Of a DNA stretch of 4,444 nt, positions 1-4,444 are shown in pieces. Position numbers: made by a program. How positions within the stretch are numbered: position 1 is the stretch's first letter; each line of letters starts with the position of its first letter. This DNA is from a virus (lineage: Duplodnaviria > Heunggongvirae > Uroviricota > Caudoviricetes). The stretch lies in IMG/VR virus record IMGVR_UViG_2537561506_000014; one strand, 5' to 3'.

Positions 1-3000
1 TTTGAAAAATATAATTTTATTTCATCCTCCTGGTCACTTTGGGGCACGTCTGGGGCACGGGCATTAAGGACATTATTCAACATGGCAACCTGAGTCACGC
101 TGCACTCAGGCATCCATGCACCATAAACATTGTAGACCATGCTGGCGCTGGAGTGCCCCATCTGTGATGCAATAAATGTCGGGTTTGCTCCGGCAGATAA
201 AGCCCAGCACGCATAGGTATGGCGTGACTGATACGCTTTACGGGATCGGATACCCGCTCTTTTTATTGCTGAATCCCATGTCGCTCCGATGGAGCTTACC
301 GCGTAGTTAATACCCGCCTTGTGATTCTTGCGAACGATTTGCGGACAGAAAACAAAAGTGCACTCGTGCAAAATTGTTCTTCCGTACTCGCGTAATTGAA
401 CAGTGATCTGATGCTGCCTGCTAAGACGAGTAAGCATCGCCTGGTTTTTAAGTGCTTCAATTGCTGGTGCCAGAAGATGTATAACCCGGTTAGTGCCTGC
501 GTCGGTCTTTGGTAGCGTAAAATCACCTATTTTTGTAAAATTTCGTCGCACTGTTATCGTGCCAGCTTTCAGGTCGATATCCTCCCATGCAAGTGCGGCA
601 ATTTCACCGTGTCGCATCCCTGTAAAAACAGCCACTGTCCAGAGGTTTTTGGTCTGTTGATGATGGCAGGCATCAATGAGACGGCTAAACTCATCTCTGG
701 TCAGTGGATCCGGCACTGGTTTTGATTTCCTCAGCGGTGTTATTGAATTAAAGGGGTTTTTCTCCAGATACCCGTTTTCGGCGGCAAAGCTGAACATTCC
801 GGCTGTTGTTGTCATGTAATAGTTCACTGTGGGTACGGTTCTTCCTTTTCGGGACGTGCTGGTTTTCCTGCTTCCCTTTTCCCCGGTCAGTAAATCTTTC
901 CTGATAAACAGCAGATCTTCTTTTGTAATCGATGACGCCAGCCTGCCAGGACCAAGCCTCGGTAGCATATTTTTCATCACTGATTGATAACGATTTAAGG
1001 CGTTACTACTGATTTCCATTACTTTCAGAGTAAGCCATTTCTGTGCCAGTTCACCGACGGTGATATCTTTTTTTACCAGGCCAAATAGCTTCAGGTTAGG
1101 TGAGTCAGGGAATCGATCGGCATAATCAAACGTTCCTGTTCTGATTGCAAAGCAGACCGAAGCCCTTAACTCACCAGCGATCTTTCTGTTTTTCGGTGTA
1201 TCGGGCACGCGAAGATTTTCGCGCACTCGTTTACCCCTGTACTTAAACGTTATTCGGAGTTTTCCTCCGTGATTTTCAACGCCGGCTGGATAGGCTGAAT
1301 TCGCCATTGTTCCTCCTGCGTCCAAGAGCACGCTCAGGTTATACTCTTATGGACAAGAATTAAACATCCTGAGATGGTAAGGGTTGGTTTTTGATCCAAG
1401 TGTTGATGGTAGGAAGATGATAGAGACATTCGCTGTTTTTCTTTGGCGTTCCGTCGGGGGCGATTTGTTTATATTCTCTGCCGTTCATCCACGCACTGTC
1501 CCTGGCGCGTAATATTGTTCCTTTTCTCAGGCCTGTTACAGCCATTAAAAGCTCCAGTGTTACCCATTCATTCGCATTTATCTGTACAACAGGTGTGATG
1601 ACTGGCTGAATGCCATGGTTATGTTGGTTTACTAACTCGCGCATAAGTTGCCTCTGCATGTGTAAGAAAAAACCGCCCGAAGGCGGTTGTCAGTTGATTG
1701 ATGTACGGCGCATTTTTCGAAGGCTGGCAATATGCTTTTCCTTCTCAATTTCCGCTTTAATCATATGCAGTTCGTTGTGCTCGATTCGCTCAAATTCTTC
1801 ATTAAATGCACCAATTGAAGTGGCTCTGGTTCTGCCGTCGAGCCTTCGGTAGATCACCTGAGTCAGAGTTACCTTGCATATTTCTACCGGATAGTTGTTG
1901 GCATCAACGAAAGACTGCCCGCGCTGGATCAGGACGAACACTGGTTGTATTCCTTGAGTGCCATATCATAAACACGGCATGCCGAGAGGTGTGTTGTAGT
2001 CAACGTCGTTCGTATCCTGAAAAGTCCATGTGTTGTGACGGTAACTTCCGGGGCTTTGAGTTTCACTGCATCAACGATATGCTGATGTTTGCGGCTTTCG
2101 AATATAGAGCTGGAGATAACCACACTTGCTGTTAAACCGTAACTTTCAAATGTGATTTTCATGTCATTATCCTCGCAGTTAGCCGGGCAACAAAAATAAA
2201 TAATGTTGTTCCTGCGAATAACAGGATACCGCCCGTCATTAGAGAAAGGAAAAACAATATTAATGTACGCGGGTTGTTTCTCAAAATATTCTCTCTGTGA
2301 TTCGCTCACTCTGACAATTCGTTGATCAAGTCACGGTATTTATTCAGTTCTTGCAGCGCCTTACATGCACCCTCCCATCGTTTCTGTTTCCGCCCGGCGC
2401 GACGCGCTTCTTTCCGTGATTTACGTAGCAGGTCACCTATAATGTTGTGCTGCACTGGCTGCACTGGCTGCACTGGCTGCACTGGCTGCACTGAGGCGAT
2501 ATTTGGTTTTTTGTCCACTTCCCTTGCAACTGCCTGCCAGATGTCATTTTTTACAGTTACTACCCCCTGGTTTTTTAACTTCCATAGAGTGTCAATAACG
2601 TCATTCAAATCAATATTGAGACCTTTAGAAATACTTTCGGCTGATGCTTTTCCTAATTTGTTCAATTCTGTGAGCACTGCGTTCATTTTTTTCTCCTGAT
2701 ATTTTAATGTCGGTGGGGCTGTTATACGGTTGGTGAGGTGTCAGCTTCTTCTACCAGCTTTTCCAGTTCATCCAGCTTGCGGGAAAGAATTTCACCAAAC
2801 AGATGAAGTTCTGCATCTGCTGTAATCGGGATTGGAACAAATCGTATTCCACTTCTGGCAAGTTGCAGGTTAGCCACGGTTAACCTCCTGCGGCGGTTCC
2901 GGTAGCGGCATCCAGTGTGTGGCCTGTTCAATACCATTACCATCAATACCATTACCAGGCGCAACCGTTATCTGCCCACGCCGAAAGGTGCTTCCTGTAT

Positions 3001-4444
3001 AGCGTGCGGAGCATATTAGCGGTTCAACCAGAGATCTATCGAAATTCACCGAAATAAGCACATTCTGGTTCTTTTCAGGCATTCGCTCACTACAGCTTAT
3101 CCAACCATCCGGAGTTACCGTAGAGTTGCCCGATAGTGCATTCTGCTCCAGTGATGCTTTTACAAACCACGCTGCCTGAACTATAACGCCATGAATCCAG
3201 CGCAAATCAGCATCGCGATCTTTCTTTTTCATCTTTTCGCCACTTAAGGCCTTGCTTATGTGGCTGCGTGCCAGGTCTTCATGTAATTCCTTCGCCTCCT
3301 CAATGGTGAAACCACCAGGCAGAAGAGCCGGAGTTACCGGAGAGCTGGTTGACGCTTCCGGGATTTTCCGAAAATTATTGGTTGACGAATCTTTATTTTC
3401 CCGAAAGTTTCCGGACTGAAGCATGGCTTCGCGGCAATCGTTCCAGCCTGTAGCGTATGCAGCCGCTTTGCTGCTGCCTTCAACTGGCGCATCCTGCCAA
3501 TACATTTCTTCCGGCACTATCGGCGCTGGAGGGGCGGCAAATAGATATCCGCCAAAGTCAGGAAGCTCTCTAATGGCCTGTACGAATTTTTGTTTGCCTA
3601 CGTCAACCCCTAATGGGTAATGAGCTATAATCTTTGCCACCGGCTCTGCTTCCAGCGATGCCAGCGCAATCCGTGCCAGTTCCATTTGTTCACCACGGGT
3701 AAGCCCGTTTTCAAGCGGATTTTTAATGAACAATTCAATACGTTCTTTGGTAATAGTGGTCATGTGTTACTCCTTAACCCGCAGTGCTTTCAACTGATGA
3801 GGGGAACAAAATCTTTTCATCAAACCCTGCATTCATATCATGAACAGCAACACACCAATCCATCGACGAACGATTATCAAGAGCCTCCATGATTTCATCC
3901 ATGCGGCGTAGGTCATACAGGTAAATGCTTTTATCGCCAATGGTGTAAAAGCCAATTTTTTTCGGTGATGGACAGCGATCAAGAACTTCCTGTAATTCGT
4001 TCAACCATGCCCGTTCTTTTTTTGTCAAAGTTGCCATATCAGTTTTCCTTATACGGATTAATTTTATTGTGCAGTGTGTTGAATGACGCCCATACCACGT
4101 CGTTATACAATTCAATAACTGGCTCAATTATTTTTCCGATTATCCAGACTAGGATTAACGGGGATATCGGTATCATCAACACGATAAACAGAATGAGAAA
4201 CAGAAATTCTGTTGTTCTACTCTTTCGCGGATATTTTTTCTAAATAATGTGACCATTCATTACCGCCCTTTCGGGCGGCCTCCTGACATTAATCGTTGTG
4301 ATAACTCATAGCTTCATTTGCAGCATCAACTGGATCAACCTCCCTCCAGCAATAATTTGGGTCGGCTCCTTCAGGCGTCCACGGTTCTAATTCATTTTTT
4401 GCCGCATTCTCATCGCCAGTAATTTTAAAAATCTGCTCAGAGAA

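Follow-up and report, generated by a model that had tools for sequence, protein, structure and literature searches.

The question raised by the 4,444-nt stretch of tailed-phage DNA analysed here (IMG/VR record IMGVR_UViG_2537561506_000014, Caudoviricetes; hereafter the window) is what kind of protein is encoded by the gene at 2870..3763 on its minus strand, and what that protein might do for the phage. The gene is an uninterrupted, ATG-initiated open reading frame (ORF) of 297 codons, whose translation is exactly the peptide quoted in the initial annotation, with a predicted mass of 32.7 kDa and an isoelectric point of 5.5. A Shine-Dalgarno site, AAGGAG, is located 6 nt 5' of the ATG (3770..3775, minus strand) and extends into the stop codon of the preceding gene (3774..4037). 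The ORF, its homologues and a BLASTP alignment to the EaA protein of phage P22 (E = 3e-34) mark 2870..3763 as an EaA-like gene with a DUF551 C-terminus. It is very likely, as regards both identity and architecture, that the gene is an intact, translatable member of the EaA-like/DUF551 family of lambdoid-prophage accessory genes, while the best explanation as a whole, in which such a family member also fulfils an early accessory, adaptor-type role, is given a probability of about 0.55.

The protein has 7997 scored relatives in a collection of 5.8 billion proteins, which does not contain the exact 297-residue sequence. The best full-length relatives are 292 residues long, share 95% identity by BLASTP and carry the name 'DUF551 domain-containing protein'. 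The DUF551-like C-terminus proposed earlier was confirmed by Pfam: residues 220-292 (2888..3106, minus strand) match PF04448 with E = 3.6e-21 and 76.2 bits against a gathering cutoff of 22, spanning profile positions 1-68 of 68 and thus both conserved end motifs, W...P at the N-terminal and W.P.P at the C-terminal side. This is the sole Pfam match of the protein; none was returned for the N-terminal part, and no clear match to a characterised enzyme family was found. In DUF551 alignments, Trp-221, Pro-229, Trp-284, Pro-286 and Pro-288 are invariant or nearly so, and the core between these conserved ends displays extreme variation of sequence and length among alleles. When run without an alignment, AlphaFold2 (AF2) gave an unusable model with a mean predicted local distance difference test (pLDDT) score of 36. 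With an alignment, DUF551 reached a pLDDT of about 62-76 and comprises five strands, so that it is predicted to be a small β-rich domain. Helices were placed at residues 6-14, 23-37, 99-116, 154-173 and 180-209 of the N-terminal part; the N-terminal helical region described previously is thus recovered, although at low confidence only (pLDDT < 50). In a Foldseek search of BFVD, a model-to-model comparison, the confidently modelled DUF551 region matched several predicted DUF551 phage proteins with a probability of about 1.0 (E of 2.8e-5 to 1e-3); these belong to myo-, sipho-, Pseudomonas, Burkholderia and cyanophages. Foldseek retrieved nothing from the PDB at E ≤ 0.001, and sequence and profile searches of the PDB gave chance matches only. 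The predicted fold confirms DUF551 membership while yielding no functional lead.

Comparison with P22 EaA reveals which parts of the protein are shared with a named phage protein. A tblastn search of phage genomes using residues 1-215 as query matched genes annotated as EaA or Eaa in P22, SPN9CC, POCJ13, g341c and others. The BLASTP alignment to P22 EaA has an overall identity of 33% with 24% gaps: the two proteins are nearly identical over residues 1-40 and can also be aligned in the DUF551 tail, but not in the middle. P22 EaA begins with the same allele of the N-terminal head (MTTITKERIELF...ELARIALASL) and, like the window protein, ends in DUF551. In the early-left operon of P22, eaA is flanked by eaI and by eaG-eaC-xis-int, a position and orientation shared with the window gene. 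Recombination genes upstream and xis-int downstream on one strand constitute a layout common to the prophage locus closest to the window (L001), phage P13374 and P22; in the window itself, xis and int follow the gene on its strand. The centres differ. In P22 EaA a dATP/dGTP pyrophosphohydrolase domain (PF04447; E = 1.2e-49) is inserted between head and DUF551, while the window protein, which has no PF04447 match in Pfam at E ≤ 1, presents variable segments, a GWNDCREAMLQ helix and a hairpin at residues 147-210 in its place. Since the EaA ends are shared and the PF04447 centre is missing, the window protein is evidently an EaA-like architectural variant and not an orthologue of P22 EaA. Closer counterparts are found in Shiga toxin (Stx) phages. 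The DNA of Stx1a-converting phages (e.g. Stx1a_PV728) is 99.9% identical over 91% of the window gene, and the gene of P13374 (ORF12, YP_006906829) and other O104:H4-type Stx2a phages is 94.8% identical. The Stx-phage copies display the same architecture as the window protein, including the 147-210 hairpin, although the closest Stx-type genomes have a different head allele.

To define this architecture, residues 1-215 were searched against 1.84 billion cluster representatives, which gave 961 clusters at E ≤ 1e-3. The best 150 of these clusters were placed along the query and combined with an alignment of diverse full-length members. Among these 150, the protein segments assort independently, so that the two-domain organization assumed in the initial annotation is too simple: the protein is evidently a string of interchangeable modules, at least four or five in number. 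All are encoded on the minus strand. The N-terminal head, residues 1-27 (MTTITKERIELFIKNPLENGLTRGEQM; 3683..3763), is one of several alleles, as seen in homologue alignments and the P22 EaA comparison. A conserved helix with joint 1, ELARIALASLEAEPV, follows at residues 28-42 (3638..3682), where genome matches overlap as described below and codons were compared. A variable segment separates residues 42 and 76 and leads to the Pro-rich linker AAPPAPIVPEE at residues 76-86 (3506..3538), which had been noted previously and which is conserved in the family according to alignment and codon comparison. A second variable segment, between residues 86 and 106, precedes the conserved helix GWNDCREAMLQ at residues 106-116 (3416..3448; alignment, AF2 model and codon comparison), whose consensus across the family is GWNxCRxAMLQ. 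Residues 117-146 (3326-3415) form a polar, low-complexity linker, as judged from sequence and alignment. Module 2, residues 147-210 (3134..3325), is a conserved, predicted helical hairpin (LPGGFTIEEAKELHEDL.RSHISKALSGEKMKKKDRDADLRWIHGVIVQAAWFVKAS) that the coverage map and the AF2 model define as an optional cassette: in many relatives it is absent and module 1 runs directly into DUF551. Module 2 also recurs in many small proteins that are otherwise unrelated, as the C-terminal part behind a coiled-coil N-terminus, and within one 585-residue multi-module protein.

Pfam domains co-occurring in the 150 best representatives were DUF551 (54), PF04447 (3), Ead_Ea22 (2) and Lar (1), and a DUF551-profile search again returned fusions to PF04447, PF13935 and PF10930. 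Codons within the conserved peptides were compared across 80 related viral loci. The peptides ELARIALASLEAEP, APPAPVVPE and WNACRAAMLQ display abundant synonymous variation (e.g. CGA/CGG/CGT, GCG/GCT/GCA and CCG/CCA/CCT), and these many synonymous variants indicate that peptide joints 1-3 are kept by selection on the protein. Three single-contig relatives of 375-395 residues (P0001-P0003) contain in-frame internal duplications of 78-100 central-region residues, which may be genuine segmental duplications or may have arisen in assembly.

The window itself shows how such genes are assembled. It was matched in 3019 of 5426 complete E. coli genomes, the best matches presenting 99.7-100% identity across window positions 1-3679/3682 and lying at the left end of a prophage beside wrbA. 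In the closest prophage (L001), integrase, excisionase, DUF4222, a small ORF, DUF1627, DUF1382 and the counterpart of the 2870-3763 gene are followed by hypothetical genes, an Ea22-like gene, DUF2737 and an anti-RecBCD gene, the whole series being on one strand. The window is thus evidently the int-xis-proximal end of a Stx-type lambdoid prophage integrated at wrbA. A 10-nt gap separates the 2870-3763 gene from its upstream neighbour and its stop codon is overlapped by the next start, while one ATGA overlap and one 13-nt overlap between genes are found further downstream. Abutting and overlapping same-strand genes beside xis-int make the earlier description of the cluster as tightly coupled and int-proximal correct. 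The gene had also been called the largest of its operon, which holds for the accessory cluster but not once the adjoining integrase, a larger gene, is counted. In contrast with the left part of the window, positions 3560-4444 are 99.9% identical to different prophages, in O26, O111, O103 and O121 strains. The left- and right-hand genome matches overlap within about 3638-3682 (codons 28-42), and the genomes closest on the left carry another head allele, their DNA match stopping at 3679/3682. As the two parts match different prophages, the window is evidently itself recombinant, with a crossover at codon 28, at the start of the ELARIALASLEAEPV joint.

A second joint, at the start of DUF551, is conserved at the DNA level. 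It comprises 44 bp (3078..3121, minus strand; comparison of viral loci L003-L085) and encodes TVTPDGWISCSERMP in the window. The consensus of the block, CCGGTAACTCCGGATGGTTGGATAAGCTGTAGTGAGCGAATGCC, encodes PVTPDGWISCSERMP; the window copy starts with A, hence TVTPDGWISCSERMP. Mean pairwise identity within the block is about 97% over 55 distinct contexts, against 38% and 53% in the 45 bp on either side. There is almost no synonymous change, rare codons ATA and CGA included, and the rare differences are mostly non-synonymous (Gly to Ser, Glu to Asp, Thr to Ile, Val to Ala). Around the block, 17 upstream and 11 downstream sequence classes occur in 30 combinations, complete four-gamete sets included. 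The block is found in 2379 of 5426 complete E. coli genomes, in up to 8 copies per genome and on plasmids as well; a scan for the exact 44-mer in a single genome of each species gave only one match, which is uninformative since exact identity in a single representative is demanded. Because the flanking segments assort freely around the block, the signature of crossing-over, its simplest reading is that of a joint at which homologous recombination would exchange heads and DUF551 cores among co-resident prophages. A length of 44 bp is about the homology needed by phage Red-type recombination. Module exchange is a long-known theme in lambdoid phages, and the joint is therefore a neat example and not a new principle. 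Four of the compared loci (L021, L030, L033 and L050) have lost the DUF551 core: the ORF ends …SERMPDDRQEVNQ (…WISCSERMPDDRQEVNQ) and the next gene starts directly, which would fit a deletion running from one conserved end of the domain to the other.

Genomic context gives the main indication of function. In 79 related viral loci the gene always occupied an early-operon accessory region, with int/xis downstream in 20, Ea22, DUF2303 or recombination genes upstream in 30 more, and a position in nin-like regions downstream of replication genes in 23. Early transcription of the exo-xis genes is driven by pL (PMC8614690). An early-operon accessory role for the window gene is accordingly considered probable, whereas an adaptor-plus-cassette mechanism is put forward tentatively. 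The product is an acidic, cytoplasmic 'beads-on-a-string' protein, in a family evolving through module swaps. From architecture and context, as observed, we infer expression timing, dispensability, docking and target as follows. Judged from its location and strand, and in parallel with P22 eaA and the exo-xis genes of lambda, the gene would be expressed as part of the early-left operon within the first minutes following infection or induction, and would not be required for plaque growth. Head and DUF551 tail, the shared parts, may act as common docking or adaptor units, with the interchangeable centre providing the specific activity: a helical hairpin here, a MazZ-like dATP/dGTP pyrophosphohydrolase in P22, and in other relatives a zinc ribbon of the Lar type or the coiled coil of Ea22. 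The target would be a DNA- or nucleotide-linked process of the host or of a competitor phage and not virion assembly.

Several observations weigh against this explanation. A promoter scan of the window gave no signal above the shuffled expectation, and expression from pL is thus assigned by position only. The alignment supplied to AF2 was shallow (59 rows, few distinct alleles): a profile from 17 diverse relatives retrieved mostly the same E. coli clade, and a DUF551-only profile retrieved 120 proteins with only about 4 distinct DUF551 alleles. Residues 1-219 remained below a pLDDT of 50 throughout, making the helical or disordered description of this part weak. Furthermore YfdS, encoded by prophage CPS-53 of E. 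coli K-12 and the sole DUF551 protein with reported phenotypes (PMC10834534, PMC4776307), scores 22.2 bits against the DUF551 cutoff of 22, a marginal match, and displays no pairwise similarity to the window protein (BLASTP E = 60). For these two reasons its phenotypes barely carry over, and assigning a function to the window protein from YfdS was rejected. In agreement with the earlier statement that DUF551 has no assigned function, literature mentioning the domain assigns no mechanism or function to it, and it has no match in the PDB, NCBIfam or PADLOC. PHROG families matching the window protein are all of 'unknown function', and NCBIfam models gave no matches. PADLOC-DB returned 0 families at E ≤ 1, but its models cover defence and not anti-defence, so that this silence is uninformative.

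The initial annotation had suggested a host-interaction, anti-defence or exclusion function. Broadly put, this idea is simply consistent with the early-operon context and with the MazZ-like, Lar-like and Ea22-like fusions found among relatives. In its strict form the protein would be a dedicated anti-defence effector, with the hypervariable DUF551 core as the specificity surface in an arms race with restriction, abortive infection and rival phages. The accessory site beside anti-RecBCD and Ea22-type genes, the mildly acidic protein and the extreme variation of core sequence and length between conserved ends all agree with such a role, as do relatives in which head or tail is fused to a Lar restriction-alleviation domain or to MazZ-like pyrophosphohydrolases, MazZ having been described as an inhibitor of host restriction in the Ea22 nuclear magnetic resonance paper (PMC10834534). 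However, Pfam, PHROG, PDB and fold searches revealed no match to characterised anti-defence proteins (Ocr, Ard, Ral/Lar, Gam/Abc, Acr and others), and cassette exchange at DNA joints could equally account for the variability of the core without positive selection; a dedicated effector is regarded as improbable. An equally doubtful alternative is that the protein modulates the choice between lysis and lysogeny, or else replication and stress physiology in the host, resembling the exo-xis genes orf60a, orf61, orf63, orf73 and ea22 or the CPS-53 genes yfdQRST. The neighbourhood of the window gene is that of the exo-xis genes, and yfdS occupies an analogous position, upstream of the excisionase gene torI at a prophage end as the window gene is relative to xis, and adjoins yfdQ, a DUF2303 gene; P13374 and many other loci likewise have a DUF2303 gene upstream of the EaA-like gene. 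In multicopy, yfdQR plus yfdS or yfdT inhibit DnaA-dependent initiation of replication (PMC4776307), and deletion of yfdS confers sensitivity to H2O2 (PMC4776307, PMC10834534). Against this, DnaA was bound by YfdR alone and YfdS can be replaced by YfdT (PMC4776307), YfdS comprises 120 residues without EaA head or central modules and is barely recognized as a DUF551 protein, and Pfam identified no DUF2303 or HD-domain gene inside the window.

The joints and the annotation of related copies have prompted other readings, which are less probable still. One extends module exchange into a function: EaA/DUF551 genes would constitute a cassette-exchange system in which heads and tails are swapped between co-resident prophages via near-invariant joints, generating specificities against host defences or rival phages, with the DUF551 core as a diversifying recognition surface. 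This appears somewhat less likely than either alternative above. Much more remote is the notion that the 44-bp block is kept as a nucleic-acid element, be it a protein or small-RNA binding site or an RNA structure. Its near-complete lack of synonymous change, even at ATA and CGA, and a small palindrome inside it (CCGG-TAACT-CCGG) would suit such an element, but no Rfam family matches anywhere in the window, both sides assort freely in 30 combinations with four-gamete quartets, and the rare changes are mostly non-synonymous and tolerated. It is just as improbable that the gene is a decaying mosaic remnant without function, a reading invited by the Prokaryotic Genome Annotation Pipeline (PGAP)/RefSeq annotation of L001, where a 100%-identical region is marked as two 'incomplete' DUF551 pseudogenes, by fragmented copies in other prophages (L005), by loss of the DUF551 core in some loci and by the missing 297-residue database entry. 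Yet the ORF is intact in the window, with a good Shine-Dalgarno site, and at L001 6870-7781 (303 residues), where only the head allele differs; module 2 is present in abundant proteins annotated as intact, e.g. in clusters found on about 1000 contigs; and conserved peptide joints with many synonymous changes indicate purifying selection. The gap between the two PGAP pieces corresponds to window positions 3134-3337, almost exactly the optional 64-residue cassette. The split pseudogene call is thus an annotation artefact of mosaic structure, and annotation of an intact ORF as pseudogenes explains why the exact protein is absent from protein databases.

A 15-bp tandem duplication reported within the gene was found to be exact, although one base away from the interval first given: 2928-2957 instead of 2929-2958. 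Tandem Repeats Finder (period 15, 2.0 copies, 100% match) and base-by-base comparison, in which 2928-2942 equals 2943-2957, agree on this interval (minus strand). The two units, GGTAATGGTATTGAT and GGTAATGGTATTGAA, are in codon register and encode GNGID and GNGIE, residues 270-279. They overlap low-confidence residues 273-278, between predicted strands 265-269 and 280-286. Within the DUF551 allele of the window (…ARYTGSTFRRG…), GNGIDGNGIE is found in 4 of 53 protein clusters, the others having a single GNG(I/V)E. Stx1a phages presumably carry the duplication too, because identity to them is 99.9% across the region. The match of P13374-type copies covers 795 nt where the query has 810 nt; the missing 15 nt would fit copies that lack the duplication. 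The in-frame repeat is most likely a slippage product and, overall, a neutral-looking, minor-lineage polymorphism without sign of a special role.

Other mosaic proteins of phages were compared with the window protein. Ea22 variants of lambda and Stx phages are likewise mosaic proteins of the exo-xis region with an interchangeable C-terminal domain, which is DUF551 in variant V2 (PMC10834534). According to the same paper DUF551 is a portable domain, occurring in Ea22 V2, YfdS and MazZ fusions, and the C-terminal domains of Ea22 are acidic. Pfam detected no Ead/Ea22 coiled-coil signature (PF13935) in the window protein, which is why assignment as an Ea22 variant was rejected; Ea22-like genes are separate neighbours in related loci. 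Polyvalent proteins of phages and conjugative elements (Iyer et al. 2017) also combine unrelated small modules in one polypeptide and are shuffled between elements. They are, however, defined as large proteins that travel with the DNA, and they are associated with genes for virion packaging or conjugative transfer, while the window gene specifies 297 residues in an early-operon region. DUF551, EaA and Ea22 are absent from the paper describing them. A polyvalent-protein assignment was rejected, since the gene is found in ea- or nin-like early-operon regions and not beside packaging genes. A paper on a Gifsy-1 eaa homologue was discarded as a functional lead because the phenotype maps to other genes. 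Likewise, the label dTDP-6-deoxy-L-hexose 3-O-methyltransferase was rejected, as Pfam and NCBIfam revealed no methyltransferase family match; this label is carried by phage phi191 (NC_028660.1) and two NCBI proteins (P0011 and P0050) and is probably a propagated mis-annotation.

The gene thus belongs to an already known and abundantly annotated family, and the find is real yet ordinary. As it stands it carries little weight, being a routine member of a widespread prophage family with near-identical copies in published Stx phages. Nevertheless, with window matches in more than half of the complete E. coli genomes, outbreak Stx phages included, any function assigned would annotate thousands of genes. 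The module map accounts for the automated splitting of intact copies into 'pseudogenes'. Finally, the invariant DNA joint offers a concrete, testable case of co-resident prophages exchanging modules inside a gene, and such exchange reshapes the prophage pools of enterohaemorrhagic E. coli.

Several features of neighbouring genes were also recorded. A second gene of the L001 prophage (8498-8956), encoding 152 residues without Pfam match, is similar to the EaA/DUF551 family, and two such paralogues lie within 1-1.5 kb in many loci, the additional one being upstream of the match in several viral loci. The start of the DUF1382 gene (2722-2964, minus strand) is ambiguous. GTG 2877 has a strong AGGAGG Shine-Dalgarno, would overlap the stop codon of the 2870-3763 gene (GTGGCTAA) and gives 51 residues; ATG 2937, chosen by PGAP, has no obvious Shine-Dalgarno and would produce a 68-nt overlap with the 3' end of that gene. 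The DUF4014 ORF (4039-4182, minus strand) encodes 47 residues covering only profile positions 26-72 of 72; it appears 5'-truncated, and its counterpart in locus L005 is annotated as frameshifted. A terminator-like hairpin with GC-rich stem and T-run (AACCGCCTTCGGGCGGTT TTTTCTT; 1671-1688, minus strand) lies between the DUF4222 and excisionase genes and is the sole terminator-like site on the gene strand within the window. The DUF1627-related gene (2306-2686, minus strand), whose product has a weak winged-helix-like N-terminus, contains a perfect tandem repeat of five 9-bp units at 2449-2493 (GCTGCACTG), encoding (VQP)5 in the middle of the protein.

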